Origin: an uncultured Bdellovibrionales bacterium
GTDB taxonomy: Bacteria; Patescibacteriota; Minisyncoccia; Moranbacterales; UBA1568
Length of the DNA stretch: 64,000 nucleotides
Reading direction: 5' to 3'
Assembly (NCBI GenBank): GCA_964597355.1
Contig: CAZQWS010000003.1
Location: forward strand, 15,301-79,300
In this document: positions 2,930-58,129 of the stretch, piece by piece
How positions within the stretch are numbered: the stretch's first letter is position 1
Layout of the letters: each line of letters begins with the position of its first letter
Notes under the pieces: generated by a model
The model's input: the letters and a program-made list of their open reading frames with translations, nothing else
What the model was told of the DNA's origin: nothing
Database searches by the model: none
Made by a program: the position numbers and the translations under genes

Positions 2930-4309
2930 TTATTCTTCTGTTGTTATGTATTTGTCTCCTTTACTCAAAATGAACGGGCGATTGAGTTTGAGTTCGTATG
3001 TTTCTGTGCCGCTATCCCGAAGTACTGTGACTGTTATCGGCATATCATTCACACCTGGCTGCTTCTCGATTTTGAGATCATACTCATCAGCTTTCACCGT
3101 TTCCGGCAAGCGATATTCCCAGGTCACTTGTTTGGTTGTACCAAGTGGGACATGGACAAGGGCTCCAAAATATTTCTTGCCAAGTTCGCTACCAAAAACG
3201 GCCGGCTTGAAGTTTCCAGTAACTTTTTCCAACCAACTTCCTTCGGGTACATACAGCCGTGAAAAAGTCTGGTAATCACGCGTCATATAGTCTTTTTGCG
3301 TAGCGGTATGTTCGTACGTCACCACAACCTTGGCCTTCTTGGCATCACCACGAAGGTCAAGTGTATAATTAACTGAACGTCGCATCCGATAGTCGCTTTT
3401 CAAGGCATTCAGGTTGGAATCGACCAGCATGAGATAATCATCCTCCCATTTTGTATCAAGCTCCCCGCTCCAACCGGCCGTCTTCACTGTCTCCTGCAAG
3501 TCTTCGTCTTTAAAAAGTATTTGGATGTCCTTCTTATGGAGATCATCCAAAACCACCTTGAAGAGTTCGTACTTTTTCGGGATGGAGAGGTCTTTGACCT
3601 TATCGAGAATGATATTCCCTAACTCATGCATAACTTGTTTGCGATCCCCTCGACTAATCCCCTGCTTATAAAACGCCTGTTCTACCTGGTATTCAAGATC
3701 CAAAACACCCGTTTCAGCGTCATATTCCCCTGGATAACCTGGTACCACTACTGGCCCCGTAATCGAAAGAAATGAAGAAAGCACGTTGGTCGTAATACCG
3801 ATCACGCCATCAAACTCCTCTTTTCCTTCACCCATATGATAAAAATCTTCAGCCGCTTTGGCATTGACCGCCCAATCAGGCGAAACATTTGAGTCACGCA
3901 ACTTGAGCGTCCGCACGCCGAGCGTTTCAGACAATGGATACGGTGCCGGTACGGTATCCGGAATCCTCCCATCGAAGTTAATCACATCATGCGAACTAAA
4001 TTCCGTGACTTCGCCATCGTTCACTTTGAGAATACCAAAAGAACCGATGAAGCCACCACCGGGCCGGAGTTCCATATTATTTTGAAACAAGACCAGAAAT
4101 ACTTTTTCCTCGCCACGCGTATCGTAGAAATGTCCGGCTATTTTGGCGATCGTTTTGAGGTCACCCTGCATTTCTTCAGAAAAAGGCAGGATATTTGAAA
4201 TGTCCGTCAATGAATCCAGTCGGCTGGAGCGAGTTTCCCAGTAAAAATACCAAGCTCCCAAAAAGAGCGCGCTCACCAATATAAATCCGGTCCAGAATTT
4301 CCATGTCAT
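2930..4309 (-). CDS. DUF4012-like membrane-anchored protein (paralog of 60860..62956)
   Basis: N-terminal TM helix after the ATG at 4307-4309. Motif 'NNMELRPGGGFIGSFGIL' is shared with the second copy ('NNHELRPTGGFIGSYALL'). I recall this motif from DUF4012 proteins but cannot confirm it here. Confidence 0.55.
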   Translation of the reverse strand: MTWKFWTGFILVSALFLGAWYFYWETRSSRLDSLTDISNILPFSEEMQGDLKTIAKIAGHFYDTRGEEKVFLVLFQNNMELRPGGGFIGSFGILKVNDGEVTEFSSHDVINFDGRIPDTVPAPYPLSETLGVRTLKLRDSNVSPDWAVNAKAAEDFYHMGEGKEEFDGVIGITTNVLSSFLSITGPVVVPGYPGEYDAETGVLDLEYQVEQAFYKQGISRGDRKQVMHELGNIILDKVKDLSIPKKYELFKVVLDDLHKKDIQILFKDEDLQETVKTAGWSGELDTKWEDDYLMLVDSNLNALKSDYRMRRSVNYTLDLRGDAKKAKVVVTYEHTATQKDYMTRDYQTFSRLYVPEGSWLEKVTGNFKPAVFGSELGKKYFGALVHVPLGTTKQVTWEYRLPETVKADEYDLKIEKQPGVNDMPITVTVLRDSGTETYELKLNRPFILSKGDKYITTEE

Positions 4310-4380
4310 AAAAACAATCAACAGTAAACAATAAACAGGAGACCGTTATCTTCCTCACTCTAAAAACGTTGCAACCTCTC

Positions 4381-11607: not shown

Positions 11608-12984
11608 ATGCTTCTCGATACTACTTTGACGCCTCACTGGAAGAATCCGCTCATTTGGATCGGAACAGCCGGCGTTTTTTGTTGCCTACTCCTCCTTTCA
11701 CTCATTCTTAACATTTCACTCCTCTTTCCTTTGGTCGTAGCCTTTGGGACGCTCTCGCTCATACTCCTCTTTCGGGCTCCCCTCTTGCTCCTGTCACTCC
11801 TCTTCATAGTGCGCATGTCACTCGACTACTCGTCGCAATACATCGGTCTCTCTCTGTGGACTATCACGCTTTCACTCTCGCAACTCCTTGGTCTCAGCAT
11901 CGCCCTTCTTGGAATCATTTCTATTGTTGTACATTTCCAGAAACTTCTCCGTTTTCCACTCCTTGCACCTTTCCTCGTTGTTACTCTCTGGGGACTGCTT
12001 ACCATTACCTACTCTATCAGCCCCAACGCTACGGCGTACGAACTCTTACGCTTCTTCAATCTCTTTGTAATCGGCTTTCTCGCTTTTGTTTCCATCACCC
12101 GATACCGCGACTTTCGTACCCTCCTCCATGCCATCTTTCTTTCCGGTATTTTGCCTGTCTTGTTCGGCCTCTACCAATTTATCTTCCATATCGGCCTCAA
12201 CGATGAAAATGTTTCCATCCCACGCATTTTTGGCACCTTCAGCCACCCTAATGTCTACAGTTTATTCCTATTCGCACTCATTGCCCTCGGTATTCTCTAT
12301 TTCCTCATCTATGCCAAAACTCGTGAGTCGCGATTCATGATCATGGGCTACCTCGCCCTCCTCACGGTAACCCTCCTCCTCACCTACGCTCGCATTGCCT
12401 GGATCGCGCTTTTTGTTTTTCTTTTTTTACTCTCGCTCTGGCGTTTCCGCCCCTTGCTGATCCCGCTTATGTTGTTTCCGATCATCCTCGTCACGTTTTC
12501 CGTGAGTATCCAAGATCGAGTCAATGAGGCATTCCATCCCACCCCAGACAGCTCCATCACCTGGCGCCAAAATCTCTGGCACGACATGGTACTCAAAACT
12601 GACTTCGAAAACCGTGAACTCTTGGGAAGTGGCATGGACACGTTTCGGATTTCCTCTGAACAGTTGCGTGGCCTACGTTTCGGTTCCAATGACCCTCACA
12701 ATGACTTTATTAAATTCTACGTCGAAGGTGGCGTGGTTGGAATCGCTGTTCTTGTGCTTTACATCAGCTTACTCCTCTTTTTCATTATCCGTATCTATTA
12801 CAAAACCCCGAGTCACAGCCTGCGCACCCTCGCTACGCTCTCTGGATTTGTGATTCTTACCCTCCTCCTAGCCAGTCTTTCTGACAATGTTTTCAAAAAC
12901 ACACCCGTCCAGTGGATACTCTGGACCATGCTCGGCGGCCTCCTCGCCCTCTATCGTGAATCAATAAAAAAATCATTAGAATAA
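11608..12984 (+). CDS. O-antigen ligase / Wzy-like polytopic membrane protein
   Basis: About 10-12 TM helices plus the Wzy_C-type loop 'HPHNDFIKFYVEGGVVGIAVLVLYI'. Confidence 0.6.
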   Translation: MLLDTTLTPHWKNPLIWIGTAGVFCCLLLLSLILNISLLFPLVVAFGTLSLILLFRAPLLLLSLLFIVRMSLDYSSQYIGLSLWTITLSLSQLLGLSIALLGIISIVVHFQKLLRFPLLAPFLVVTLWGLLTITYSISPNATAYELLRFFNLFVIGFLAFVSITRYRDFRTLLHAIFLSGILPVLFGLYQFIFHIGLNDENVSIPRIFGTFSHPNVYSLFLFALIALGILYFLIYAKTRESRFMIMGYLALLTVTLLLTYARIAWIALFVFLFLLSLWRFRPLLIPLMLFPIILVTFSVSIQDRVNEAFHPTPDSSITWRQNLWHDMVLKTDFENRELLGSGMDTFRISSEQLRGLRFGSNDPHNDFIKFYVEGGVVGIAVLVLYISLLLFFIIRIYYKTPSHSLRTLATLSGFVILTLLLASLSDNVFKNTPVQWILWTMLGGLLALYRESIKKSLE

Positions 12985-12990
12985 AGAAAA

Positions 12991-13040
12991 AAGAGGGTTT
13001 TGGATATGCTTTTGAGCATTTTTCCAAAACCCTCTTTGAA
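12991..13040. terminator. bidirectional hairpin terminator between convergent genes
   Basis: Perfect inverted repeat aagagggttttgga (12991-13004) / tccaaaaccctctt (13023-13036) in an A/T-rich context. Lies between the 12984 (+) gene end and the 13068 (-) gene end. Confidence 0.5.
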
Positions 13041-13067
13041 TTTCCCAACAACGCTCTCTCGTAATAC

Positions 13068-13811
13068 CTACGGACGGGACACGCCGAATACCCGCGGCAC
13101 AAGCACCGTTTGGTACTGACCCTTGGTGTCACCAATCCAGTCCGAGAGCCAGGCCTCGCAGTTGTTGGACGTAGCGCAGCCTTGGGACCATCCATTGTAG
13201 TCCATGTTGCCTCGCCAGTAATCCATACCAAACTGCAATCGCGCATCCCCCTCAACCTTCACCACAGCAAGGATGCCATAACGAGCGCCAGGCACTGCCT
13301 TGACCCGAGGCTCCGTCCACATGTGAACGATTGATTCCGGGATCGGCTTGAGGTTGATGGAGAGTACTCCTCCCGTCAGGCGGACCACCGGCTTTTGGAA
13401 TGCCGGCTTGCCCGAAATGAACCATTCGGGATTGCGCTTGAATTGCGCCCCTTCGAGCTTAAGGGAACTTGCCCCATCGAAGCGAAAGCTCGTCTCGGTG
13501 TCAAAGCCGCCTTCTGGCTTGAAACGAATGATCTCCATCTTCTGGATTTCAATCGTGGCCGGACGGTTGCGTTCACACGCATACACCGTGACGGCGTTCA
13601 ACATGCCAACGACATGGTCGAAACCCTTGGTCGCCATGAACTGCGGCGATTGGTACTCCTGCTTGATGACCTCATTCGGCCACATGGCAGTACCCCTTTC
13701 CCCTGCCTGCGGGATGAGCCGATCGGGAAGGTTAGGAGCGCACGGAGCTGCTTCACTCAAGCCCGAAAACATGAGCGAAACGAGGAAAAAGAGGATGCTG
13801 AGCCAAGTCAT
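13068..13811 (-). CDS. exported hypothetical protein with W/N-rich C-terminus (CLec-like?)
   Basis: Signal peptide 'MTWLSILFFLVSLMFSGLSEA'. C-terminus 'DYWRGNMDYNGWSQGCATSNNCEAWLSDWIGDTKGQYQTVLVP' resembles the DGR-target C-terminus (YW..N.D..W....W...G.Q.VL.P). GC is higher than in neighbouring genes. Confidence 0.5.
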   Translation of the reverse strand: MTWLSILFFLVSLMFSGLSEAAPCAPNLPDRLIPQAGERGTAMWPNEVIKQEYQSPQFMATKGFDHVVGMLNAVTVYACERNRPATIEIQKMEIIRFKPEGGFDTETSFRFDGASSLKLEGAQFKRNPEWFISGKPAFQKPVVRLTGGVLSINLKPIPESIVHMWTEPRVKAVPGARYGILAVVKVEGDARLQFGMDYWRGNMDYNGWSQGCATSNNCEAWLSDWIGDTKGQYQTVLVPRVFGVSRP

Positions 13812-14012
13812 GTGAGAGCTCCTTGGTTAAAGAACCATTGGATTAAAAAACTGCCAAAACCAAGATACACGATCCAGATTTTGACTATTCATCATGCTAC
13901 AAAGTATATATAAAGTCAAGAGAAAAATAAGCAAAAGAAAAGGGTCTCTCTTGAACTTGCGTTCTTGAGAGACCCGTGATTGGTCAGTTGACCAAGTGAG
14001 CCCGAGGAGAGC

Positions 14013-14756
14013 TCAGTCGTCCTTGCCGGCCGCAACTTCTTGCGGAGCCGGCTGGGTGCCACTCGGCGGCTGGATGATGCGCGCGAGTTCACGGCGAGAC
14101 TGAGGGGTCAGCCTGACCACCTTGCCGGAAGTGTCGTAGCCGACCACCGTCGCTGGGAAGCGCTTGTCATTGGCCGCAAGTACCATGAAGTCGCCGATGC
14201 CGACCGCATTGTTGTTCGGCTTCCAGCCAGCGTGGCCGAGCCATGCCTGCTTGCCGTCGGCCTTGACGAGGAGGAAGTTCATCGGCAGATAGCGAACCGA
14301 CGTCCCGTTCGCCTTGCGGGTCGGGAACCGGAGCACCACTTGGTTGTCGCCAACCTTGGCCGAAGCGATGACGCCGTCCTTGCACTTGTTGTCCAGCTTA
14401 ACGGACGCTGCGGTCTTGCCGCCGCACCAGTCGTTGCCGAGCTCGAGCGCGTAGACGGTGCCACCGCGGAAGTAGGCTGGGTTTTCGCCGTACCACGCTT
14501 CGCGTTTGGCATCCGCGCCGCCTTCCTTCTCGCTCGATTCGCCGTAGGCGTAGAGGTTGGTGAGGGTGAGCGTCGTGGTGCTGCCGTCGGAGTTGAAGTT
14601 GATGACGGAGTCGCCGCCCGGCAAGGGATGGCCCTTGTCGTCGGTATAGCCGTCGACCGCGATCTTCGCCGCGGGTGCAGAAGGCGTCTGCGCCAGCGCG
14701 AACACCGGCACGATGAGGGCGATGAGCGCCCAGAAGAAATTGCGCAGTTGCTTCAT
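14013..14756 (-). CDS. exported hypothetical protein (GC-rich)
   Basis: Start moved to the ATG at 14754-14756 (MKQLRNFFWALIALIVPVFALAQTP is a signal peptide), with 'aaggagg' 8 nt upstream. Local GC is about 70% in sampled 60-mers. The antisense 244-aa ORF is rejected. Confidence 0.5.
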   Translation of the reverse strand: MKQLRNFFWALIALIVPVFALAQTPSAPAAKIAVDGYTDDKGHPLPGGDSVINFNSDGSTTTLTLTNLYAYGESSEKEGGADAKREAWYGENPAYFRGGTVYALELGNDWCGGKTAASVKLDNKCKDGVIASAKVGDNQVVLRFPTRKANGTSVRYLPMNFLLVKADGKQAWLGHAGWKPNNNAVGIGDFMVLAANDKRFPATVVGYDTSGKVVRLTPQSRRELARIIQPPSGTQPAPQEVAAGKDD

Positions 14757-14780
14757 GATGTGGCCCCTCCTTGAGGCTGA

Positions 14781-14838
14781 GTGGGGAAATCCCCGATGGT
14801 AAAGAAGGTTCGCCATTTCCCTAGGGGAAAGGTTCCCC
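14781..14838 (-). promoter_or_regulatory. two GGGGA(A)-N2-3-(T)TCCCC inverted repeats in the 5'UTR of 14013..14756
   Basis: Plus strand 'tggggaaatccccga' (about 14781-14795) and 'ggggaaaggttcccc' (about 14824-14838). They sit between the predicted promoter and the RBS. Confidence 0.3.
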
Positions 14839-14856
14839 ACGGAATAATGACTTTTT

Positions 14857-14885
14857 ATGATAGCGCAAATAATGATTATTGTCAA
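14857..14885 (-). promoter_or_regulatory. sigma70-like promoter TTGACA-17-TATCAT for the 14013..14756 gene
   Basis: Minus strand reads gggTTGACAataatcattatttgcgcTATCATaaaaag. -35 at 14880-14885, -10 at 14857-14862. Preceded (in transcription order) by a hairpin at about 14948-14980. Confidence 0.4.
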
Positions 14886-15108
14886 CCCTAAATAATGTAA
14901 AAAAAAATGGCTATAATAAGCCAATAAATAAGTCTTAAAAAGAATAAAGGGCAGATATCACGAAGATACCCGCCCTTTCAAATTGCGAACGATGTCGCTT
15001 CACTGAATTTCATCTATATCAGTGCCTAAGTCGCATGCGAGGATTGCTCCCTACAGTGGCGCCAAGACCTATTTATGCATCAATAGATTTAGTTCAGTGA
15101 TATACAGC

Positions 15109-16941
15109 CTACTTCAATGGCGGCGGGCCAATATCGATCGACTTGATGAAGCCGTTCTTGGCCCGATCCATCGCGACCCCTCGCTCGGCGGCTTCGCTCA
15201 CGATTTGGTGCTGACGCACCTTGTCGCGGACAACGCGGCCACCCTTGACGGGATCAGCCCACCAGCCGAGAGCTGGGACGAGGTCTTTGCAGTCCTCTTT
15301 GAGGTCACAGTTGAACCCAACACCAAGGCCCGCGATGTGGTTCGGGTCGGCAATGCCGCCCCGCAGGCTCATCGAAGCACTGGTCGGATGCTGAACGAAG
15401 ACCCCTGCCTGGAAGTACGGGTGTACCAACGCGTCCGGAGACTCGTAGATCCACTGACGGAACCCCGCCTGGAGACCGAAGTCGAAACGCGAGAGATCAC
15501 CCGTATCGGCAATTGGCTTGCCGAAGTACGAGTGACTCACGTCCTTGCCCAGGGGGAAGGTCAGTGCGCCGAACACTTGCCATTCAGGGAACCATTCCTC
15601 GCCCTTCAGTCGGCGCCGATAGTCGTTGAGGCCAGCGGTTAGTCCCGCGAGGTCGAACTCACGCTTGGAAGCGTAGGCACCCTCCTGGTACTTTTCCACT
15701 TGCTTACCACCGACAATCGATACCTCCCAATCAATCCCCTTGTCGAGGATCTGCTTGTAGGAGGGGCCGAAGAGCACGTTCCAACCACGGAATTGCCCGC
15801 GGTCGCCACTCGTGTTGCCGTCCCACATGGAAGCGGTAATCTTGGCACCGACACCATGCGAGCCGTCGTCACTCGGCAGTCGCCGGAGACAGTACACGCT
15901 AGCGGTCGCGAACGTTGAGTCATCCTTCGCCCCATCATCGTGTGACAGGGTGTACTCCTGACCGAGAGACGCTGCAGGATCGATGTGATCACACATGGCC
16001 TTCGGCTTCGGAGCCTGCACAACTGGCACGACAGGTGTCGGCGGCGGTACAGCAGAAGGTTCGACTTTTACGAACGGAGCGCTAGCAGGTGGCTCAGGCG
16101 AAGTCACCGCCGGTAACGGTGGGACCGGCGGCAGTGTCATTGGGAAGAAGTTGCAGCAGAGTTCAAACTGCCCCACCCACTTGCCATCGATTTCACCAAC
16201 ATTGGCCCACATGTCCTGTTTGACGAGGACACGCCCCTTCCAGTACCCATGACCGAACGACAGACCATCGATGAATGTCCCAGCCTTGATGAGCTTGCGC
16301 TCCTTCACGAGAGTGGTCCACTTCATCGCCGTTTCCTTCGGGATTTCGAGATCCCGAGCGAGTACAGCAATTTGGTCCAACTTCTTGCACACAGGATCAC
16401 CACCAGGACGGCTGAACACACAGTAACCAAGCTTCGTCTTCGAGCAATCGACCAGTTGGTACCGGTTTTTCGGCACGAAGAAACGCTTGCCGACCTTGTT
16501 CATTCTGGCGAGAGTGGCATCGCTCACAACAAGGCTGAGCTTTTGGCCCGGCCGAATGTCATGGCAATCCTCGAGTTTATTCTCGAGGCAGAGTTCCTTC
16601 CAGTCGAGGTCGTACTGCTTCGCGATCTTGATGAGCATGTCGCCCTTCTTGATCATATATTCAGTCGCTTGTTTGTCCTCATTGACAACTTGTTCAGCTG
16701 TCAGTTCAGAGGCAATGCCCGCCGGAACACTCGCCACCGGAGCGGGAGTGCTAGCTGCCAAAACAGTGGGAACCGAAGCTTGCTGCCCCGGTGGATTTAC
16801 CACGTTTTTGGTAACCTGACCAACGTTGCCTTGCTTAGGCGTGTAGGTCGACCAGATTAACCCTGTAATACCAGTGAGCAGGATGACGAAAACCGCCCAT
16901 CCGGCCAACGGGTGACTCTTGGAAGAATATTGTTCACTCAT
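15109..16941 (-). CDS. membrane-anchored LysM-domain protein with Pro-rich linkers and large C-terminal domain of unknown function
   Basis: N-terminal TM 'LAGWAVFVILLTGITGLIWS'. LysM-like block 'YMIKKGDMLIKIAKQYDLDWKELCLENKL...IRPGQKL'. Pro-rich 'PPVPPLPAVTSPEPPASAP...PPPTPVVPVVQAPKP'. GC about 58-72%. Confidence 0.55.
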   Translation of the reverse strand: MSEQYSSKSHPLAGWAVFVILLTGITGLIWSTYTPKQGNVGQVTKNVVNPPGQQASVPTVLAASTPAPVASVPAGIASELTAEQVVNEDKQATEYMIKKGDMLIKIAKQYDLDWKELCLENKLEDCHDIRPGQKLSLVVSDATLARMNKVGKRFFVPKNRYQLVDCSKTKLGYCVFSRPGGDPVCKKLDQIAVLARDLEIPKETAMKWTTLVKERKLIKAGTFIDGLSFGHGYWKGRVLVKQDMWANVGEIDGKWVGQFELCCNFFPMTLPPVPPLPAVTSPEPPASAPFVKVEPSAVPPPTPVVPVVQAPKPKAMCDHIDPAASLGQEYTLSHDDGAKDDSTFATASVYCLRRLPSDDGSHGVGAKITASMWDGNTSGDRGQFRGWNVLFGPSYKQILDKGIDWEVSIVGGKQVEKYQEGAYASKREFDLAGLTAGLNDYRRRLKGEEWFPEWQVFGALTFPLGKDVSHSYFGKPIADTGDLSRFDFGLQAGFRQWIYESPDALVHPYFQAGVFVQHPTSASMSLRGGIADPNHIAGLGVGFNCDLKEDCKDLVPALGWWADPVKGGRVVRDKVRQHQIVSEAAERGVAMDRAKNGFIKSIDIGPPPLK

Positions 16942-17071
16942 AATTCCGGCCTCCTTCAGCCATGAATTCGTTGGAAGAACTCAGGAACAAAGGTGGGCAG
17001 CAAGGAGCGACCCACGCTTCATCCCGAATCGGTTTGAAGACAAGAGGGTCGCTCATCATGAGCCTCTCCTT

Positions 17072-17929
17072 CTATTTGAGACAATCTTCTTTGGCAAACG
17101 CACTCACGACTTGGTAGCCGTAAAGCGCACCTACGAGTGGCAATGCCGCTTCCATCCCGGGCGAGAGCTTGAGACTCGTGCACGAGAGGAGTCGGTCACT
17201 CACGCCATCAAGCGAAGTGAAAGCTATGACAGCCTCCACATCCTGACGGCTTTTCCCGAGGTAGCGTCCGTTTTGACCACGCAGCCCAAAGACATACGTG
17301 AACCCATGGAGCATACCGTCGAGAGCAAGCCGCGCATGTTCGTTGTTGATCGGATCGAGCCGGACCACTTGCATGACCGGTGAACGATTCGTTACAAAGA
17401 AATCAGCGCGGAGTTCCTGGGGATTGAAACCTTTGGGAAATTCCACTCGCTTGCTAAGCGTCGTCATCCCCCATTTCCCGTCCGAAGACAGGATGAGAAT
17501 GGACTTCCCGGCGAAACGCCGGGTGTCAACTGCAAGAGGGAAAAAGACATCAAAGCCTTTCACCTTCTGATCGACGCGTGCCTGATAGAGCTCGATTTTC
17601 CCATGCTCCAGAAACACGATCACTCGAAATGTCTCGCGAATAAGCGGTTGGCGAACCTTGCGGCCACCTTCCACCACTTCGTAACTCCGAGCCGTGTCCA
17701 CGAATTCCTGTTTCCAGTAATCGGGAAGCGGCTCCGGAAGCTTGAAGTACATGTACGCCACCCCTTCGGGTACGAACACATCTGCGTCGAGCACGCGATT
17801 CTGCCAAGGTTCTTGCCTTCCAATGGTCTCGACTGTACGAACTTCGAAACCGCTATCACGCGGAAGCGAAGAAGCACAACCAGTAAGCCAGACGACGACA
17901 AGAGCCAGAATGACACGAGCGAACCTCAT
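17072..17929 (-). CDS. putative lipoprotein, unknown function
   Basis: 'MRFARVILALVVVWLTGCASS' is a signal peptide with an LTGC lipobox. 'gaaggagg' RBS. Immediately upstream of the LysM gene. Confidence 0.45.
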   Translation of the reverse strand: MRFARVILALVVVWLTGCASSLPRDSGFEVRTVETIGRQEPWQNRVLDADVFVPEGVAYMYFKLPEPLPDYWKQEFVDTARSYEVVEGGRKVRQPLIRETFRVIVFLEHGKIELYQARVDQKVKGFDVFFPLAVDTRRFAGKSILILSSDGKWGMTTLSKRVEFPKGFNPQELRADFFVTNRSPVMQVVRLDPINNEHARLALDGMLHGFTYVFGLRGQNGRYLGKSRQDVEAVIAFTSLDGVSDRLLSCTSLKLSPGMEAALPLVGALYGYQVVSAFAKEDCLK

Positions 17930-17988
17930 GTTGAGACTCCTAGTTGAAGTTGAATTGAAGTAGGATGTTTAGGTACTTCTTCGAATCT

Positions 17989-18034
17989 TTCCTCTCGAGA
18001 TTCGCTGAGCATTCTCAGAAAACCTCGAGAGGAA
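17989..18034. terminator. strong hairpin downstream of the Wzz-like gene / upstream of the GC-rich block
   Basis: ttcctctcgag (17989-17999) pairs with ctcgagaggaa (18024-18034), a perfect 11-bp stem. The loop contains the nested ctgag....ctcag. No clear T-tract. Confidence 0.3.
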
Positions 18035-18060: not shown

Positions 18061-18681
18061 TTAGTAACCGCGACCAATGTCTCGGACAATCACTCGAAAA
18101 GCCATGAGCGATATTCCAACCAGAAATCCTAGGGCGATAATCGAAACGAGTTCCTTGGGAGCTGGATTGCGTTCCGTGATCGGCCCAGAGAGAATGCGGA
18201 TCTCGATAGCTTTTTCGTCACCGCCACGAAACTCCATATTCTTAGTAATCAACACATCCGAGAGAGCCTGCATTACTTTGCCTGCCTCTCGATCGGTATC
18301 TGCCTTGACGGTTACAGAAAGCATCCCGAGTTCGATGTTCTTCTCGACCGATACCATCGAGCGCCAAGCTTTGAGCCGCTCACTTTTGTCCATTGGCAAG
18401 AACTCCTTACCTACTTTGCCTGTTTCGATAACAGCGTTGATAAAACGTTCACTCCAAATAGACTCAGACAGCACTTTGCCCAAATACTCGGACGATTTGA
18501 ACAAGGTGTAAAAATCCTGATACTGCGTATTGGACTGCACCACCATAAAATCAGTCGTCACCTTGAAACGAGGCGAGAGGAGTGTCACGCCAAAAAAACT
18601 CACGGCCGCCACAAAGATACCAGCCAAGATCAAGCTGCCTTTTTTGTCGACTAATAGACGGAGAACCTGCGCAAATGACAT
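18061..18681 (-). CDS. Wzz/PCP-like polysaccharide chain-length-determinant family protein (short form)
   Basis: Bitopic, with an N-terminal TM 'LILAGIFVAAVSFFGVTLL' and a C-terminal TM 'IIALGFLVGISLMAF'. About 200 aa, as in CapA/YveK-type short PCPs. Confidence 0.5.
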   Translation of the reverse strand: MSFAQVLRLLVDKKGSLILAGIFVAAVSFFGVTLLSPRFKVTTDFMVVQSNTQYQDFYTLFKSSEYLGKVLSESIWSERFINAVIETGKVGKEFLPMDKSERLKAWRSMVSVEKNIELGMLSVTVKADTDREAGKVMQALSDVLITKNMEFRGGDEKAIEIRILSGPITERNPAPKELVSIIALGFLVGISLMAFRVIVRDIGRGY

Positions 18682-23808: not shown

Positions 23809-25908
23809 TTAGAGACCAGGCTCTTCAATACGCAGGCCAACATTCGATATTGCTGAAGGTGTCTTAGAAACAATACGTTTTACCAATTTAAATGTGTTTG
23901 CGTCGTATACTTCAACCTCATTTGCTGACTGTGATACCACGTAGACAAATTTCCCATCATAGGTAAATTCTGGATGCCATGAGCTCTCACCTTTAACTGG
24001 GATAATTGTTTCAACTATTTCGTTCACACGCGCATCGATAACATAGATCTCATCTTTATGGTCACCGAACGCTGTGTCAGCCCACACATACGGGTATGAA
24101 GGGTCTTTGCTATAACTCCGCACAAAGAGTCCTGGTCCTCCTGTTTTAATATATTTTACCGGCTTCCAAGTTATTGTATCGATAACAGTTATAAGACCTT
24201 CACCAAGTGCCGGCACATAGATATAATTCCCCCATGCAGCGCCGGGGCCAGTATGTGGCGTCTCTCCAGTCTCAATCTCAGCAACTGACTTCATCGTAGC
24301 AAGGTCAAGAACCCAGGCGGTTTTTGATCCCTGTGAAGCAACAACATAATACTCTCCACCAGGAGTAAGGAATGCGTCGTGAAGCGCAGGGACATTTCCG
24401 CCGATATCCGAAAATTTATGCGTAACTGGAAAGTCAGGTTTGTCCGTATCTATAGCCCATACACTCATTGTATCCTTAAGAGCCACAATAATACGATTAC
24501 CATCTTCAACAACCGCTCCTGCTCTTGATTCGACCATTTCTCCATTCACCTCCATCGTAAGCGATATTGTTTTCTGTATTTCCATGGTGACAGCATCAAG
24601 AATCACCAGATTACCAGGCGCGTAGTTTCCGACTGCAACGTATTTTCCATTGTCAGTGATGGCAGTACCACGCGAGTTTTCTCCGACATTTATACTTTTT
24701 ACTGGCTGAAGTGTTTTGAGATCGATTTTTGTAAGCCATCCATCACGAGAAATGATAAACATATGCGCAGCCTCAGGCGAGAAAACAGAGGTATGGGGCT
24801 GGAAGCCAACATCATGAATGCGCCCAATGATCTCGTGAGTCAATCCATCAATAACCAAAAGTTTCTCATCATCCTTCTCAACAACAATCATGAGATTCTG
24901 TGGATTCCATGAATTTTCTTTCGCATAAAGTTCACGGTATGGCTTCAATTCTGTATTTTTTTGAAATGGAATATCCACATTCGTAACTCCAGTTCCATTT
25001 CCAAGATCACCGATATAATACTTCATCATCTTATCGCGTATCCCATCACCATGATTCTTGTGATAGTTAGCGCTAACATCTGTGCCACATTTGAACATCG
25101 CTGGATGCAATCTTGATGATTCAGTAGCATTGAATACTTTTCCGTCAATAATAAGCCAACAATCTTCCGAATTATTATGAAGAGTGACATCATCAACTGT
25201 ATATTTTACACCGGAAGCTTTCTGAACTATTTCCTTTCCGATAATCGCTGGGTTAACTACCCGATCAGCATCAAAAAACCACGCAGCGCTAAAACCTATA
25301 CCAAATATAAATGCCGCAAACAAAGAGCGCTTCAATATCATTGCATCGTTCGATCGAACAAATCTATGATGGACGATCCACGTAATGAGTACGCCGACAA
25401 CGAGCGTCATCGCGTAGAGTGCCATGAATGCAAAATAGCCAATGTCAGTCCTGTAAATCACGTGGTGAAACATGAGAAACACCCAGGAAACTACAGACAG
25501 CACGCCACTCTCAAGAAGAAAAGCGTCGAGTGCGATACCTCCATTATGCATATTCCGAACACGTGGCAGGTGCCGAAAACTGAATACAAATTCATTCGTG
25601 ACGAGAATCACCGCGACAGTCATGCTGGCGTAGAAAATACCCAGAGTCAACATCGACTCATACGCCAGCGTAAAAAGTCCAATGCCACTCATACTGTATA
25701 AAAGTAGCGCAGCCCACACCACCCTGCGTGACAACTTCAATAATGAAAATTCGTCTTTTGAGATCATCCCATCTCGTGCAGCAAAAAGAAACAAGGCATG
25801 ACTAAGTATAGCTGCCCCAAGGCCAAGTCCGAGAGCAATCGAGAAAATAAACAAATACGCAGTGTGCAGTCCAATATATGAAAAAAATTCCATTGCTTGA
25901 TTATACAT
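23809..25908 (-). CDS. fusion protein: N-terminal polytopic membrane domain, cytochrome b5-like heme/steroid-binding domain, C-terminal YVTN-type beta-propeller
   Basis: About 6 TM helices (residues 1-210). 'YTVDDVTLHNNSEDCWLIIDGKVFNATESSRLHPAMFKCGTD' is b5-like. The propeller repeats include 'GKYVAVGNYAPGNLVILDA' and 'GEYYVVASQGSKTAWVLDL'. Confidence 0.5.
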   Translation of the reverse strand: MYNQAMEFFSYIGLHTAYLFIFSIALGLGLGAAILSHALFLFAARDGMISKDEFSLLKLSRRVVWAALLLYSMSGIGLFTLAYESMLTLGIFYASMTVAVILVTNEFVFSFRHLPRVRNMHNGGIALDAFLLESGVLSVVSWVFLMFHHVIYRTDIGYFAFMALYAMTLVVGVLITWIVHHRFVRSNDAMILKRSLFAAFIFGIGFSAAWFFDADRVVNPAIIGKEIVQKASGVKYTVDDVTLHNNSEDCWLIIDGKVFNATESSRLHPAMFKCGTDVSANYHKNHGDGIRDKMMKYYIGDLGNGTGVTNVDIPFQKNTELKPYRELYAKENSWNPQNLMIVVEKDDEKLLVIDGLTHEIIGRIHDVGFQPHTSVFSPEAAHMFIISRDGWLTKIDLKTLQPVKSINVGENSRGTAITDNGKYVAVGNYAPGNLVILDAVTMEIQKTISLTMEVNGEMVESRAGAVVEDGNRIIVALKDTMSVWAIDTDKPDFPVTHKFSDIGGNVPALHDAFLTPGGEYYVVASQGSKTAWVLDLATMKSVAEIETGETPHTGPGAAWGNYIYVPALGEGLITVIDTITWKPVKYIKTGGPGLFVRSYSKDPSYPYVWADTAFGDHKDEIYVIDARVNEIVETIIPVKGESSWHPEFTYDGKFVYVVSQSANEVEVYDANTFKLVKRIVSKTPSAISNVGLRIEEPGL

Positions 25909-43014: not shown

Positions 43015-44283
43015 CTAATCTTTGCGTAGCGCTTCCATCGGTGTTAACTGCGAAGCCCGATAGGCTGGCGAGAGACCAAAGATGAGTCCCACCGCAACTG
43101 AAAACCCCACTCCCAAAAGAAATGACTGGAACGAAAAAGTAAGCGGGAGGTCAAAGCCGAGGACTGCAAAGAGTACACTGAGTCCCAAAGTGAGAAGTAC
43201 CCCGAGGAGGATCCCGATCACTCCTCCTAAAAGAGTGACCGTAAGTGCCTCAAACAGAAATTGTTTCAGGATACTGCGCGACGTGGCGCCTACGGCTTTT
43301 CGAAGACCGATCTCATTGGTACGCTCAGCCACCGACACATACATGACATTCATAATACCCACCCCGCCTACCACGAGCGAAATCGAGGTGAGTGCCAAAA
43401 GGAGAATAGAGAGGGATCCAAACACATCTCCCAATGTTGCCTGTGCCTCTTTGGTCGATGTCACGGAAAAATCGTCTTTACCAGGATTATCAATATCATG
43501 ACGCTTGCGAAGCAGTCCGACAATATCAGCGACGGTTTCTGTTTCCCGAGATGGATCCTCCATCTTTACCGAAATAAATTGTACATAGTCCACTCCTAAT
43601 ATTTTTTTCTGGAGAGTCTGTACTGGCACATACGTGAAAGCATCAAGATTGAAGAAGGCAGCCGCCCCTCGTGGCGCGAGCACGCCAATTACTCGGTATT
43701 TCTCCCCCTTGAGTGTAATAGATTCCCCGATAGCACCACTCTCGCCAAAAAATGTTTCCTTTGTTTCGCTACCAAGCACGACTACCCGAGCTAAGCTCTC
43801 ATCTTCCTCTTCGGTAAAAAAACGCCCGCTGGCCAACTTGGCATTAGTATCCACTTGTAGTGCCCCCGCCCCAGTACCAAACAGTGAAATGCGCTTGCCT
43901 ACTGATCCATAGGTAGCCCGCTCTTGGCCGATAGTACCTGCATAAATCGCCTCAATATTGGGGAGCTTCTTGATGGCCTCTGCATCTTCTACCACGAGCG
44001 TCGTTATCTGCGTCCCCTGAGCTCGACCGGTCGCATTATCACTCGACATTGCCGAAGTATTGGGAATCTTTACCTCTATTTGGATCACGTCCGTCCCAAA
44101 ACTTTCCACCTGGCCCAAAACAAAACCCTTTACCCCGTCACCAAGCGCCGTCACTACTACCACTGAGAACACCCCTATCACCACGCCGAGCAATGCCAAA
44201 GCAGTTCGCATTTTGTGCGTGCGAATCGTTCGCAAAGCGAAGAAGAGAGGGATCGAAAAATGTTTCAGCCAGGTATTATTCAT
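43015..44283 (-). CDS. ABC transporter permease, MacB/FtsX family
   Basis: N-terminal TM, a large extracytoplasmic MacB-PCD-like domain and a C-terminal FtsX 4-TM bundle. Paired with 44276..45517. Confidence 0.7.
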   Translation of the reverse strand: MNNTWLKHFSIPLFFALRTIRTHKMRTALALLGVVIGVFSVVVVTALGDGVKGFVLGQVESFGTDVIQIEVKIPNTSAMSSDNATGRAQGTQITTLVVEDAEAIKKLPNIEAIYAGTIGQERATYGSVGKRISLFGTGAGALQVDTNAKLASGRFFTEEEDESLARVVVLGSETKETFFGESGAIGESITLKGEKYRVIGVLAPRGAAAFFNLDAFTYVPVQTLQKKILGVDYVQFISVKMEDPSRETETVADIVGLLRKRHDIDNPGKDDFSVTSTKEAQATLGDVFGSLSILLLALTSISLVVGGVGIMNVMYVSVAERTNEIGLRKAVGATSRSILKQFLFEALTVTLLGGVIGILLGVLLTLGLSVLFAVLGFDLPLTFSFQSFLLGVGFSVAVGLIFGLSPAYRASQLTPMEALRKD

Positions 44284-45517
44284 AGCGTAGTGCTTCCATT
44301 GGACTTACCTTGGCTGCTTTGAAAGCTGGATACAAACCAAAAGTAATTCCAATAATGAGTGAGACTGAAAAACCAATTACAAGAGATGAGAGCGGCACCA
44401 GAAATTGCCAGTCATAACCAAGTGTCGGAATAATAATGGCAGCGAGATAAGCAATGGCAACTCCAAACACCATACCAATACAGCCACCGACAAGGGTAAT
44501 GAAAGACGACTCAATAAGAAACTGCGTAATGATATGTTGGGGCCGCGCCCCAACTGCTTTTCGGAGACCAATCTCTCGCACTCGCTGCGAAACCGAAATA
44601 AGCATGGAATTCATGATGCCGATTCCTCCCACTAAGAGCGAAATAGAGGAAATAGCGATCAGGAAATACTTGAGCACATTGGTGATATTGGTCAGGACGC
44701 CAAGTGCTGCTTTGGTGCTGCGTACCGAAAAGTCTGATTCTTCATCTTCCTCGAGATCGTGACGATCACGGAGGAGAAGGGTCATATCTGCCATCGTCCG
44801 TTCGATATTTTCTGGTGCATCAGCTTTCCCTCGAGCGAAATTAAGATAATCAATGCCGAGCAATATTTTCTGTGCGGTGACAAGGGGCACATAAATAAGC
44901 GTATCTGGATTAGAAAAAGCTGCCGATCCACGCTCTTCCAAAACTCCGATAACTTTGAAAGGGTTGTCATTAATTTTCAAGGTTTCACCAAGCGGATCAC
45001 GATTGGGAAAGAGCTCCTTAGCCCGAGTGGCCCCGAGTACCACCACTCGAGAGAGGTCACCTTCTTCTTCTGGAAAGAAAAAACGGCCGAGTGCTACCTC
45101 AATATTCTCTACCCCAATCATTTCCGGTGATACTCCCTGATAGGTAAGCTCAAAGGAATCTACTTCTGATTCGGCCGTAGCCGAGCCTGTAACATAGCCT
45201 GAAACAGCCGAAAGGTGCGGGACATTGCGCCGCTCACGAAGAGCTTTGAGATCATCATTTTTGAGAGTGGTAGTGACAATACCAAGTGCCTGAGCTGGTG
45301 GCCCGCTTTCTTCCGAAGCCCCAGGTAGTACCACAACGAGATTAGAGCCAACGTTTTCAACTTGGGACAGCACAAGCTTCTGTGCACTCGCTCCGATGGC
45401 CATGACCATAATAACTGCTGCCACTCCAATCACTACCCCTAACACGGTCAGCATAAACCGAAGCTTTGCAGTCAAAAGAGAACGATACGCAATTTTAATC
45501 GGATCTGAGAGTTTCAT
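44276..45517 (-). CDS. ABC transporter permease, MacB/FtsX family (second)
   Basis: Same architecture as 43015..44283. 8-nt overlap with the downstream paralog. Confidence 0.7.
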   Translation of the reverse strand: MKLSDPIKIAYRSLLTAKLRFMLTVLGVVIGVAAVIMVMAIGASAQKLVLSQVENVGSNLVVVLPGASEESGPPAQALGIVTTTLKNDDLKALRERRNVPHLSAVSGYVTGSATAESEVDSFELTYQGVSPEMIGVENIEVALGRFFFPEEEGDLSRVVVLGATRAKELFPNRDPLGETLKINDNPFKVIGVLEERGSAAFSNPDTLIYVPLVTAQKILLGIDYLNFARGKADAPENIERTMADMTLLLRDRHDLEEDEESDFSVRSTKAALGVLTNITNVLKYFLIAISSISLLVGGIGIMNSMLISVSQRVREIGLRKAVGARPQHIITQFLIESSFITLVGGCIGMVFGVAIAYLAAIIIPTLGYDWQFLVPLSSLVIGFSVSLIIGITFGLYPAFKAAKVSPMEALRYE

Positions 45518-45529
45518 TGAATCGTAAAA

Positions 45530-46264
45530 TTACTTCAGAAGCTCAGTCTCATTGGTAGCGAAGCGTCGATTCAAAACGGCTGCGTCCGCAACAATCTGCC
45601 CATCTTTCATGGTAAGAATACGCTTACCATGCTCTGCTGTAGAAGTCTCATGGGTTACCAAAATAATCGTATGGCCTGCATTATTGAGTTCCTGCAAAAT
45701 AGACATGACCTGGAGACCTGATTTGGAATCAAGATTCCCCGTAGGTTCATCTGCAAAAATAATTTCTGGATTATTGACGAGAGCCCGCGCAATGGCTACG
45801 CGCTGCTTCTCACCACCTGACAATTGATTGGAAAGGTAACCTTTCCGATGGAGCATACCTACTGCTCGAAGCGCCTCCTCAACTGCTTTCTCATTGGAGA
45901 AATCCATTTCCTCATCATAAAGTAAGGGGAGTTCTACATTTTCAGCCACGGTAGTTTTGGGCAGCAAATTGAAAGCTTGAAAGACAAAACCAATCTTCTT
46001 GTTGCGAAGCCCTGCCAATTGATCATCCGAAAATTCCGTGACATTTTTCCCCTCCAAAAAATACGTTCCCCCAGTAGCTCGATCCAAGAGACCAAGTACT
46101 TGCATGAGAGTAGATTTCCCTGATCCCGATGGACCCATGATCGCCACAAACTCGCCCCTCTCTATGACAAACGTAGCACGCGAAAGAGCTGAGGTCTTCA
46201 CCCCTTCATTGTCATAGATTTTGGCTAACTCCTCTACCTGAATCAAGGGTCTTCCGCCATTCAT
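45530..46264 (-). CDS. ABC transporter ATP-binding protein (MacB/LolD-type)
   Basis: Walker A 'GPSGSGKST', Q-loop, signature '[15 protein letters not shown]', Walker B '[12 protein letters not shown]'. Confidence 0.8.
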
Positions 46265-46266
46265 AG

Positions 46267-47268
46267 CTATTTCTTTTGAGTCGCTCCAATCGTCACCACA
46301 TCACCTTCTTTCAGACCAGACTTTACTTCAATAGTTCCGTCATCACCTTCGAGTCCAGTGATAACTTCTACTTTCTCAAAAGAATTTTCACCTCGTTTCA
46401 CTGAGGCATAGGTTATACCTTCCTCTTTCGTTAGCGCTCGATACGGCACCCAGAGCACACCAGTCCGCTTGGCTGTTTCGATATCGATATTGCCGGTCAT
46501 TCCTTCTTTCAATCGAGAATCCATGTGTTTCAAGCGAAACTTCACTTTATAAGAAACGACATCTTGCACAACGGTCGAAGCGGGATCGATCTCAATAACT
46601 TCCGCTATAAAAATTTCATCATTGGTAAAGGCGTCAAACGTCACCTCTGACTGCATACCGATAGCCACCTTGGCTATATCGGACTCTGGTACTCGTGACT
46701 CAAGTACGAGGCTTTCTGGCTTCATCACTCGAGCCAAAACTTTCCCTACCGTTGCCACTTCGCCCACTCTCCCCGAAAACTGCGAAATCTGGCCATCCAT
46801 TGGAGCGTAAAGAGTATTCTCTTGCATTTGCGCTTTGATGGTGCGGACTTTTTCCCTGGCTTGTTCCGCCAAGAGTTTCTTTGCGTTTAAATCTTCTGGC
46901 GTGTAAGCACCGGTACGATTACGCCGAACTTGTTTCTCATTTTCCTCAGCTATTGCTACTGCAAGTTGAGCCTCTTTATACTGTGAATAAATCACTTCTC
47001 GATCAAGTGAAAGTAGCTTCATGTCAGTCACTACCTGATCGCCATTTTTGACGAACACTTCATCAATCGTGCCAATGCCAGTAAAGGAAAGATCAGCGTA
47101 TATTTCAGGGAGCAACTCTCCCGTGACACTGACCGTCTCGACAATATCTCCCCGCTTCACAGTTTCCGTTTGTACGGTTTCTTCATCTCCTTTGCTCATG
47201 AAATACCAAACCATCCCTCCAATGGCGATAAGTATGAGCCCGATAATAATATTTCTTTTCTGAAACAT
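46267..47268 (-). CDS. efflux transporter periplasmic adaptor (HlyD/MacA family)
   Basis: N-terminal TM, a coiled-coil hairpin and beta-barrel/lipoyl-like segments. Heads the adaptor-ATPase-permease-permease operon. Confidence 0.6.
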   Translation of the reverse strand: MFQKRNIIIGLILIAIGGMVWYFMSKGDEETVQTETVKRGDIVETVSVTGELLPEIYADLSFTGIGTIDEVFVKNGDQVVTDMKLLSLDREVIYSQYKEAQLAVAIAEENEKQVRRNRTGAYTPEDLNAKKLLAEQAREKVRTIKAQMQENTLYAPMDGQISQFSGRVGEVATVGKVLARVMKPESLVLESRVPESDIAKVAIGMQSEVTFDAFTNDEIFIAEVIEIDPASTVVQDVVSYKVKFRLKHMDSRLKEGMTGNIDIETAKRTGVLWVPYRALTKEEGITYASVKRGENSFEKVEVITGLEGDDGTIEVKSGLKEGDVVTIGATQKK

Positions 47269-57370: not shown

Positions 57371-57658
57371 CGATATACATTTGGTAGTAAAATTGATACC
57401 CTCTTTCTCGAAATGCTTGAAATCCTGTTTCGAGCCCAGTATGCGAGGATGGAAACCAAATTACAGTACCTGGTAGCCGCCATCAGTAAACTCGATCTCC
57501 TCAAGTTCTTCCTCCAAATCGGTTGGGAAAACCAACTCATCGATACCAAACAATACACCAAACTCTCGGAAGATATGAGTGAGGTAGGGAGAATGCTTGG
57601 CGGCTGGAAAAAAGGCCTGGAAACAAAACTCTCACCGAAGGAGGTAAGAGAAACGTAA
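57269..57658 (+). CDS. avd: Avd-like accessory variability determinant (four-helix-bundle protein), opposite strand to RT/TR/target
   Basis: 129 aa, translated directly from the plus strand. '...HIPKVHRYTFGSKIDTLFLEMLEILFRAQ...LLKFFLQIGWENQLIDTKQYTKLSEDMSEVGRMLGGWKKGL' parallels Bordetella phage Avd as I recall it. Similar size to Avd. Its 5' end overlaps the RT ORF by about 100 nt. Confidence 0.65.
   Translation: MTQTPPAGILSLTQKFKALYRSWQAIVLHIPKVHRYTFGSKIDTLFLEMLEILFRAQYARMETKLQYLVAAISKLDLLKFFLQIGWENQLIDTKQYTKLSEDMSEVGRMLGGWKKGLETKLSPKEVRET
57279..57286. repeat. C8/G8 homopolymer inside the avd/RT overlap
   Basis: gacc cccccc gcagg: eight C on plus. It encodes T-P-P-A in avd and G-G-G in the RT N-terminus. 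Confidence 0.85.
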
Positions 57659-57667
57659 AGAAAGTAG

Positions 57668-57779
57668 CGGAGAAAGAACCTGGTCCCCGGCATTCCACTG
57701 GCCATTCTCGTCGAGCTTCCAATCGTTGACGTTCCACTTGTGGTTATCGGCGTTCCAGTAGAAGTTGACCGTGAAAATT
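57668..57779 (-). repeat. DGR template repeat (TR), 112 bp
   Basis: Aligns to 58151-58262 without gaps. All 16 mismatches are plus-strand T, i.e. minus-strand A, in this copy. In the target frame it would encode IFTVNFYWNADNHKWNVNDWKLDENGQWNAGDQVLSP, rich in AAC/AAT. Confidence 0.85.
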
Positions 57780-58129
57780 CTGTGTCTCGAGCCATCTATG
57801 CCACCACCCTTCGATAGCTCTTAAGGTTGCATCGTATCTGGGACCTCGAAGTCCACCAGCTCAAGACACCAACTCTCTTACTAAGATTTTTTGAAAATTG
57901 ACGACCCTCCTACGCGAGACTTGCCTACCACTCAGACAGGCGTATCCGGCGTAGCTCTCGCCAGTTCAATGCCCAATACGATGACTCCCAAGCCCATAGC
58001 CGGAGAGATTACGATCATATCGTTTAGATTGTATCAAAATAAAAGGCCCCGGGAAACTTTTTGCAAAGTGTCCAAGGGCCCACTGGTCCGCCTTTGGCGG
58101 AAGTGTCCAAGGGTCAGTTGACCCGATGA

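Follow-up and report, generated by a model that had tools for sequence, protein, structure and literature searches.

A GC-rich block of genes for exported proteins, among them a LysM protein with a predicted beta-barrel, occupies a fixed slot in a Moranbacteria-type envelope locus

In the inverse autotransporters (intimin/invasin, type Ve), a LysM domain is combined with a 12-stranded beta-barrel, and a long passenger of Ig-like or lectin domains follows the barrel. Variable loci of the O-antigen and capsule type are usually AT-rich relative to their genome and encode sugar enzymes. In the diderm Terrabacteria, a group containing the candidate phyla radiation (CPR), the typical tether is OmpM, a peptidoglycan-bound barrel (bioRxiv 10.1101/2021.05.31.446380). 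Here we analyzed a stretch of 64,000 nucleotides (positions 15,301 to 79,300 of contig CAZQWS010000003.1; hereafter the window) in which a block of four genes at 13.0–18.0 kb can be compared with all of these systems. The four genes, which we refer to as p1 to p4 and which are all on the minus strand, lie between genes for a Wzy/O-antigen-ligase-family membrane protein and a Wzz-like protein, and one of them encodes a LysM protein (p3) whose C-terminal part is predicted to form a beta-barrel.

The explanation that we favor, with a confidence a little above even, is that the block, which lies within a surface-glycan locus, is an ancestral, position-fixed and hypervariable surface cassette of a Moranbacteria-type CPR clade, whose alleles have been exchanged and whose p3 product is a wall-tethered barrel protein. 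As in recombining O-antigen and capsule loci, there is a fixed slot with conserved flanks and variable content (one to four small genes), and discordant genealogies, atypical composition and an association with Wzz and Wzy are also shared. In contrast to those loci, the cassette is GC-rich and encodes exported orphan proteins, and here it is the surrounding glycosyltransferase, Wzy and Wzz genes that are stable and of native composition. Variable surface cassettes that recombine within a fixed slot are a known arrangement; what is unusual is that this one is GC-rich and made up of genes for orphan exported proteins. Genomic islands, too, are usually AT-rich, and a GC-rich cassette runs counter to that common pattern.

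Relatives of the locus were reached by four routes, namely exact and homologous matches to p3, the RseP protein, homologues of p4 and an exhaustive profile search with p3. Twelve relatives, all of them independent assemblies, shared the locus (L004, L007, L009, L012, L022–L028 and L030), and in all twelve the cassette was in the same place, at RseP identities to the window that ranged from 97% down to about 57%. Genomes of the clade include GCA_052034935.1 and GCA_964561695.1, and contigs with the cassette come from samples of the sewage or wastewater type. Where the contigs reach, the gene order is (MreC-PBP2-GreA-LysRS-SerRS)-BNR-RRF-RseP-Wzz-like, usually followed by a lipoprotein, the LysM/barrel protein, one to four small secreted proteins and Wzy. 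Past Wzy lie a methyltransferase gene, which is missing in some relatives, and a glycosyltransferase family 4 (GT4) gene. There is exactly one copy of the barrel gene per locus. The p3 family is larger than this set, as a first word-indexed search gave 12 matches and the exhaustive profile search showed a far larger and more diverse family, with about 88 representative clusters covering the barrel among its best 150 matches; every p3-family context examined was this same locus. Collections of 5.8 billion and 1.84 billion proteins yielded no member of the cassette families outside this locus wherever the context was checked, and the organism names seen were only Moranbacteria/Moraniibacteriota.

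The assignment of the clade follows from such names. One p4 homologue and one p3-family member carry Moranbacteria/Moraniibacteriota names, and the next-closest named relatives of the window are three Candidatus Moraniibacteriota metagenome-assembled genomes (MAGs; L013–L015), whose RseP (51–54% identity) and RRF (53–62%) are encoded in the same gene order and for which the BNR lipoprotein agrees. The Moraniibacteriota belong to the Patescibacteria/Parcubacteria group. One of the twelve relatives that share the locus, L012 (CAZOFS010000002.1; RseP 84% identical), was deposited as an "uncultured Bdellovibrionales bacterium", and every other relative with a name is assigned to Candidatus Moraniibacteriota/Moranbacteria. 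The MAG L012 has probably been given the wrong taxon in its label; a correct label would alter what is to be expected of the envelope.

The original prediction had described the block as compositionally atypical, and scans of GC content, GC at third codon positions (GC3) and tetranucleotides all agreed. The GC content of the window is 0.477, with a standard deviation (SD) of 0.038 across 500-nt windows, and that of the block at 13.0–18.0 kb is 0.58. The 1-kb windows at 14001–16000 have a GC content of 0.583–0.585, with a 500-nt peak of 0.648, and GC exceeds 0.6 at just one further place within the 64 kb (57.9–58.9 kb, where the high-GC gene is 58130–58822). In a tetranucleotide scan with 4-kb windows, the three windows over the block were the only ones that deviated by more than 2 SD; the TETRA correlation of the block was 0.40 compared with a mean of 0.61, and its L1 distance was 0.33–0.34 compared with 0.16 ± 0.04, a deviation of more than 4 SD. 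GC3 is 0.69 in p1, 0.77 in p2 (0.84 when counted from the ATG at 14756), 0.67 in p3 and 0.58 in p4, with p2 being the GC-richest gene of the cassette, and it is mostly about 0.38–0.55 in the remaining genes of the window, of which Wzy has the highest value (0.58). The shift lies at the third codon positions, and GC at second positions (GC2) has hardly moved in the four genes, so that the Pro, Ala and Gly content of the proteins, which had been raised as a possible source of the high GC, is ruled out as its cause.

The same excess is found in the relatives. Across 13 loci including the window, the block has a GC content of 0.53–0.62 and a GC3 of 0.52–0.79, compared with 0.416–0.566 and 0.41–0.73 in the flanks, and block GC3 is above flank GC3 in 12 of the 13 (the window and 11 of the 12 relatives). 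Block GC and flank GC are barely correlated (r = 0.28), and block GC3 is about 0.63–0.79 in all lineages but one (L028, 0.52). A GC content near 0.58 is a property of the cassette itself, carried across species with about 42% to 57% GC.

To describe the history of the cassette, we used synonymous divergence (dS, by the Nei–Gojobori method, NG86) and informative sites in a quartet made up of the window, its closest relative L007, L004 and L009. Between the window and L009 or L004, the flanking genes are saturated, with dS above 1.9 or undefined and an identity of 0.29–0.51 at 4-fold degenerate sites; for the four cassette genes, dS is 0.45–1.0 and 4-fold identity is 0.54–0.79. Between the window and L007, dS is 0.16–0.67 in the flanks and 0.29–1.08 in the cassette. 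Counts of informative sites, given here in the order (window,L007)|(L004,L009), first alternative and second alternative, were 69:1:4 for the Wzz-like gene, 141:18:21 for Wzy, 56:5:9 for the methyltransferase and 75:26:12 for the GT4 gene, compared with 23:15:12 for p4, 41:27:33 for p3, 11:13:8 for p2 and 15:17:24 for p1. The flanks strongly back one grouping, whereas the cassette genes are split nearly evenly and lack the deep species split of the flanks.

The cassette proteins also evolve faster, as among these four close lineages the ratio of nonsynonymous to synonymous divergence (dN/dS) is 0.10–0.37 in the cassette compared with 0.04–0.12 in the flanks. In L004, p3 is a mosaic, with a nucleotide identity of 0.80–0.85 on the barrel side and 0.47–0.58 on the N-terminal side and a break at the Pro-rich linker. 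No abrupt change of identity, of the kind expected at sharp recombination breakpoints, was seen in 100-nt windows at the edges of the cassette, since Wzy and Wzz are fairly conserved, too, at the ends that adjoin it; the case for exchange is therefore one of synonymous sites and quartet patterns. On these patterns we conclude that alleles or segments of the cassette were apparently swapped among related species after those species had split. Recombining genes have a higher GC3 across bacteria (PMC4450053). The lasting GC3 excess of the cassette would be accounted for best by GC-biased gene conversion (gBGC) at an often-recombining locus, or by a GC-rich pool of shared alleles.

The modular envelope protein p3 (15109–16941, minus strand; 610 residues) begins with a transmembrane (TM) helix or signal anchor at residues 11–31. 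The LysM domain follows at residues 95–136 (16534–16659, minus strand; PF01476, E 1.6e-9, 38 bits against a cut-off of 20.9), and an AlphaFold2 model places it at residues 93–137. In that model, a Cys-rich alpha/beta middle domain spans residues 174–267 and is followed by a Pro-rich linker at residues 269–315 (15997–16137, minus strand; 270–315 in the model), which is disordered, with a predicted local distance difference test (pLDDT) score below 50, and which in relatives is the junction to alternative N-terminal halves, whose differing middle domains are visible in the sequences. The C-terminal part is predicted to form a 12-stranded antiparallel beta-barrel of the outer-membrane-protein (OMP) type at residues 319–565 (15247–15987, minus strand), with pLDDT mostly 80–92. 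It is trailed by a helix at residues 569–586 (15184–15237, minus strand; DSSP on the AlphaFold2 model, pLDDT about 60–80) that may serve as a plug or linker.

The view that p3 consists of a LysM module, a Pro-rich linker and a C-terminal domain of no known family was upheld, since residues 316–610 had no Pfam or NCBIfam match at E <= 0.1 and a search of Protein Data Bank (PDB) profiles with the p3 family alignment returned only LysM proteins, with no solved OMP at E <= 10. In several of the barrel strands one face bears a run of hydrophobic residues, and Trp and Tyr occur often within the strands or close to them. In some p3 homologues a cleavable signal peptide stands straight before the LysM domain in place of the N-terminal anchor, which indicates that p3 is exported and that LysM is a wall anchor. 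A cell-surface or host-interaction role, which had been suggested for the block, is plausible and is made more specific by the predicted barrel.

In fold and domain order p3 resembles the autotransporters, although the resemblance, as judged from the model, does not extend to sequence or passenger. Like the inverse autotransporters, p3 has an N-terminal LysM domain and then a (predicted) 12-stranded barrel. It differs from them in having no Pfam beta-domain match, LysM being its sole Pfam match, in ending about 45 residues after the barrel, with no more than a helix and two short strands in this tail, in the Cys-rich domain and Pro-rich linker that separate LysM from the barrel, and in belonging to an organism presumed to lack an outer membrane and the barrel assembly machinery (BAM). 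With the type Va autotransporters (PF03797), p3 shares the 12-stranded outer-membrane-type fold in predicted structure; structural alignments with BrkA, AIDA-I, Hbp, EspP and NalP, however, gave identities of only 8–15%, and p3 has no Pfam Autotransporter match. In p3 the barrel comes after a disordered, Pro-rich stretch and the only helix lies behind it, whereas the helix of an autotransporter precedes and threads the barrel. Moreover, the N-terminal wall-binding LysM domain of p3 would stay on the cell side and not be exported through the pore. The phylum is not known to have outer membranes, and a barrel of this type is unexpected there.

The tethers of the OmpM/SlpA and OmpA types have in common with p3 a wall-binding module, a spacer and a beta-barrel in one polypeptide. 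They differ in that the wall module of p3 is LysM and not SLH or OmpA_C, in that its 12 strands are not porin-sized, in the lack of any sequence relationship and in that the clade of p3 is not known to possess an outer membrane. The position of the barrel gene also bears a likeness to that of bamA. In Escherichia coli K-12 (192–204 kb; L029), frr and rseP are directly followed by bamA-skp-lpxD, and in the clade of the window (18–21 kb in the window) the genes at that place are those of the Wzz-like protein, the lipoprotein and the barrel protein. A derivation of the p3 barrel from BamA was considered and rejected, as hhalign gave a probability of 0.1% against E. coli BamA and no POTRA domains were found. 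Since no BamA homology was detected, the order of rseP and a barrel gene would reflect either a coincidence of position or a relic of great age. In the literature we found no description of the p3 family among beta-barrels or autotransporters of Patescibacteria or Moranbacteria.

The favored explanation implies the following course of events. Related species would repeatedly swap cassette alleles, or pieces of them, by homologous replacement, and the GC3 excess would be a by-product of frequent recombination (gBGC) or of a GC-rich shared allele pool and not the mark of a foreign donor. Once exported, p3 would bind the cell's own peptidoglycan through LysM, its Pro-rich linker of roughly 45 residues would reach outwards as a stalk, and the 12-stranded barrel would be placed in a lipid layer beyond the wall. 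Many Patescibacteria live as episymbionts attached to host cells. Their envelope has been inferred to consist of one membrane and murein (PMC11809585, PMC8871954). With a single membrane and an episymbiotic life, the outer membrane of a putative Gram-negative host would be the most economical, and the likeliest, lipid layer for the barrel, which could act there as an anchor or a channel; an unrecognized outer layer of the CPR cell itself would be the alternative. The products of p4, p1 and p2 would have accessory roles at the surface, and the variability of the cassette would reflect pressure from host or phage, since fast modular evolution and exchange between species fit a surface that is exposed to either. 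On its own, the proposal that the wall-tethered p3 carries a genuine membrane barrel, whether in the host outer membrane, as an anchor or a nutrient conduit, or in an unrecognized outer layer of its own cell, is one that we put forward as doubtful.

Several points weigh against the explanation that we favor. The taxonomy is drawn from few record names, among which L012 is labeled Bdellovibrionales, and if the clade were truly diderm, the barrel would be unremarkable. In L024, which has the GC-richest background, the block is less GC-rich than its flanks. An even quartet split fits a star-like history as well as it does exchange, though either way the cassette is discordant with its flanks. An unsampled GC-rich reservoir lineage or selection at synonymous sites could also keep GC3 high. 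The barrel was predicted from only 12 sequences, its insertion into a membrane is read from sequence patterns alone, and around half of the strands alternate only weakly in hydrophobicity.

For p3, these last features suit a different reading, in which the C-terminal domain is a soluble or wall-embedded beta-rich module (an adhesin, or an S-layer-like module) that AlphaFold has closed into a barrel by default. The model was built from the 12-sequence alignment and reached a predicted template modeling (pTM) score of 0.45, no BAM-type C-terminal signal is present and p3 extends past the barrel; furthermore, CPR bacteria are presumed to be monoderm (PMC11809585). The cassette would then be no more than a variable group of proteins associated with the wall. 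We regard this reading as rather doubtful.

A second reading accepts the block as old but derives it from a single acquisition by the ancestor of the clade, the donor being a GC-rich diderm, followed by vertical descent with incompletely ameliorated GC and a relic OMP barrel. The barrel belongs to a fold class otherwise known from outer membranes, block GC is alike in all lineages, and two more distant, AT-rich Moraniibacteriota (L013 and L015; RseP 51–54%) have no block beside RseP, nor do they have a Wzz-like gene there. What makes this reading unlikely is that the flanks have become synonymously saturated and their GC3 has drifted over 0.41–0.73, so that passive retention of high GC would be implausible, the more so for the fastest-evolving genes of the locus. 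In addition, the genealogies of the block are incongruent with those of the flanks, and p3 was found to resemble neither BamA nor a solved OMP in sequence.

Alternatively, the GC3 excess could be the outcome of selection at synonymous sites, for high expression, mRNA stability or secretion-linked codons, with the low dS reflecting constraint. This would agree with GC3 being highest, and dS lowest, in the small secreted genes (p2 having a GC3 of 0.84 and the lowest dS), and each gene has promoter-like and terminator-like signals of its own. The ratio of cassette to flank dS is not constant, however, being below about 0.3 in comparisons with L009 and L004 and about 1 or more with L007, and a uniformly slower synonymous rate cannot give both. 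The 4-fold identity expected at saturation from composition is 0.28–0.40, far under the 0.54–0.79 of the cassette, and GC3 is not raised in other exported or housekeeping genes of the window (those of the BNR lipoprotein, RRF and LepA). We regard codon selection as distinctly improbable on these grounds.

The original prediction had proposed that the block was inserted into the surface-polysaccharide locus by horizontal acquisition, conceivably from a high-GC partner organism. A recent island from a foreign high-GC organism such as a host would account for the block being the strongest compositional and tetranucleotide outlier of the window, for its boundaries at hairpins and for its exported orphan products, and a diderm donor would fit with an outer-membrane-type barrel and a lipoprotein. 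The presence of the cassette at the same position in 12 of 12 relatives, 11 of which have the GC excess, is what the prediction itself had named as grounds for giving the idea up. No flanking repeats and no integrase or other mobility-gene Pfam match were found in the block, the nearest tRNA gene is at 21767, and the families occur only in this context wherever it was checked. Atypical composition is the only property of a genomic island that the block displayed; an empty site, signs of mobility and homologues in a donor were not found. Given the shared slot, the shared GC excess and the lack of mobility signs or outside homologues, a recent foreign insertion is not supported and is very improbable, and the block is better seen, on comparison of the sequences, as what appears to be an old set of cell-surface genes common to the clade. 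A mis-assembly or binning artifact that fused DNA of a GC-rich organism to a CPR contig has a negligible probability. Although composition changes at both edges and three short contigs (L001–L003) hold little beyond the block, the same junctions and flanking genes recur in more than 12 assemblies that were made independently, by different projects and with different assemblers, among them contigs of 175 kb (from the ENA) and 399 kb (GCA_052034935.1).

Six short metagenomic contigs (L001–L003, L005, L006 and L008; 2.5–6 kb) have little beyond the cassette and end close to its edges. Strain-level variation or composition-dependent coverage in assembly graphs would be expected to produce contigs of this kind.

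For the question of how uncultured CPR episymbionts make contact with their hosts, p3 with its conserved partners is a concrete, clade-specific candidate. It is also relevant to whether an outer lipid layer persists in any lineage of the CPR. If the barrel proposal were true, p3 would represent a novel type of contact device between episymbiont and host, or would shed new light on the evolution of the CPR envelope, and the GC-rich recombining cassette would be the arms-race signature of the barrel protein. More generally, the locus is a natural test case for gBGC at a recombination hot spot in reduced genomes, and it illustrates how poorly foreign origin can be judged from atypical composition by itself, as the GC-rich "island" appears in this case to be ancestral.

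The remaining products of the cassette, like p3, have the signals of export that had been predicted for all four (signal peptides in p1 and p2, the N-terminal hydrophobic anchor in p3 and a lipobox in p4). They also proved, as expected, to belong to no named family, since Pfam, NCBIfam and PHROGs scans of the four proteins and of the high-GC protein at 58130–58822 gave LysM alone; an all-against-all BLASTP of these five proteins revealed no paralogy. The secreted protein p1 (13068–13811, minus strand; 247 residues) has a cleavable signal peptide ending ...LSEA/AP and conserved Cys/Trp motifs (DYW...SNNCEAW...GDT). It had no Pfam, NCBIfam, PHROGs or PDB-profile match, but 23 homologues were found, with orthologues at the same position in L004, L007, L009, L012, L025, L026 and L028 and a pair of p1 paralogues in some relatives. 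Upstream of p1 is a sigma-70-like promoter match (13891–13919, minus strand; TTGACT-17-CATGAT, 9/12), which is a match to the consensus only.

The second secreted protein, p2 (14013–14756, minus strand; 247 residues), has the signal peptide MKQLRNFFWALIALIVPVFALA/QT (...FALA/QT) and no Pfam, NCBIfam or PHROGs match. Its orthologues were found in L004, L007, L009, L026 and L027, with a distant one in L023 and none detectable in L012. A strong sigma-70-like promoter match lies 5' of p2 (14857–14885, minus strand; TTGACA-17-TATCAT, 11/12), and 3' of p3 there is an intrinsic-terminator-like hairpin (14946–14978, minus strand) with a 14-bp stem and then a U-run (dG -22.1 kcal/mol, z -6.9).

The lipoprotein p4 (17072–17929, minus strand; 285 residues) has the lipobox LTGC at residues 15–18. 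No Pfam, NCBIfam or PHROGs match was found for it, and its family alignment found nothing among PDB profiles. A lipoprotein of the p4 type adjoins the Wzz-like gene in most relatives, being absent from L024 and unlike the 379-residue lipoprotein in L022. The p4 gene had been thought possibly native; this was wrong, as its synteny, GC3 and genealogy place it in the cassette.

Hairpins stand at both edges of the cassette. At the left edge, between the convergent Wzy (plus strand) and p1 (minus strand) genes, is a hairpin with a 15-bp stem (12990–13037; dG -28.9 kcal/mol on the minus strand and -28.3 kcal/mol on the plus strand, z -7.3 and -6.3) that was matched in stability by 0 of 200 shuffles and is U-tailed on the minus strand. 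It is likely, from these features, to be a bidirectional terminator, and its stem had no match in the relatives. At the right edge, between the stop codon of the Wzz-like gene and p4, is a hairpin (17989–18034, minus strand; dG -34.9 kcal/mol, z -5.3) with no U-run. Its stem, TTCCTCTCGAG/CTCGAGAGGAA, is kept at the same position in L004 (about 8907), L007 (about 1479) and L009 (about 3733), although the surrounding intergenic DNA of the relatives is only about 60% identical. This second hairpin may be a regulatory or processing element rather than a simple terminator. Both hairpins had been described as convergent terminators; the two exist and are stable, but the second is not convergent, as it lies between tandem minus-strand genes, has no U-run and has a conserved stem.

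Of the flanking genes, both of which are natively composed, the assignment of Wzy (11608–12984, plus strand) is solid (PF04932, Wzy_C, E 7.5e-15, 55.5 bits against a cut-off of 31.7). The Wzz or polysaccharide co-polymerase (PCP)-like protein on the other side (18061–18681, minus strand; GC3 0.55) has a compatible topology of two TM segments, but its name rests on a weak TIGR01006 match (E 1.6e-8, 34 bits against a cut-off of 296), and no Pfam Wzz match was found.

Envelope genes are abundant in the window (MreB/C, PBP2, RodA, PBP1, MurJ, MltG and many GT4 genes), and no outer-membrane biogenesis genes were seen in its 64 kb or in about 20 kb of each relative. Cell-wall and glycosyltransferase genes dominate the window, which is almost wholly transcribed from the minus strand, and DUF4012 membrane proteins are encoded at both ends (2930–4321 and 60860–62956). 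A MacB-type ABC exporter at 43015–47268 consists of two MacB_PCD/FtsX permeases, one ATPase and one HlyD-family membrane-fusion protein, and no TolC-like partner for it was found within the window. As adaptor proteins of the MacB type occur in monoderms too, the exporter leaves the question of the envelope undecided.

A second variable islet lies between the genes for SerRS and tRNA-Val/LysRS. In the window it holds a gene (23809–25908) for a 699-residue nirS-like protein with a cytochrome d1 heme domain (PF02239, E 5e-69) and a cytochrome b5-like domain; the gene is AT-rich for the genome (GC3 0.38), and a respiratory-type gene is unusual for a CPR genome. In L004 and L012, the same slot holds a GC-rich gene for a protein of 382–392 residues with a weak Rieske match.

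A complete diversity-generating retroelement (DGR) is present at 56231–58822. Its target gene (58130–58822, minus strand) is the sole other high-GC gene of the window, with a GC3 of 0.70 and no family match. The element includes a reverse transcriptase (56231–57370, minus strand; RVT_1, E 3e-22), a template repeat (57668–57777) and a variable repeat (58151–58260) at the 3' end of the target gene, and all mismatches between the two repeats are an A in the template against a G, T or C in the variable copy.

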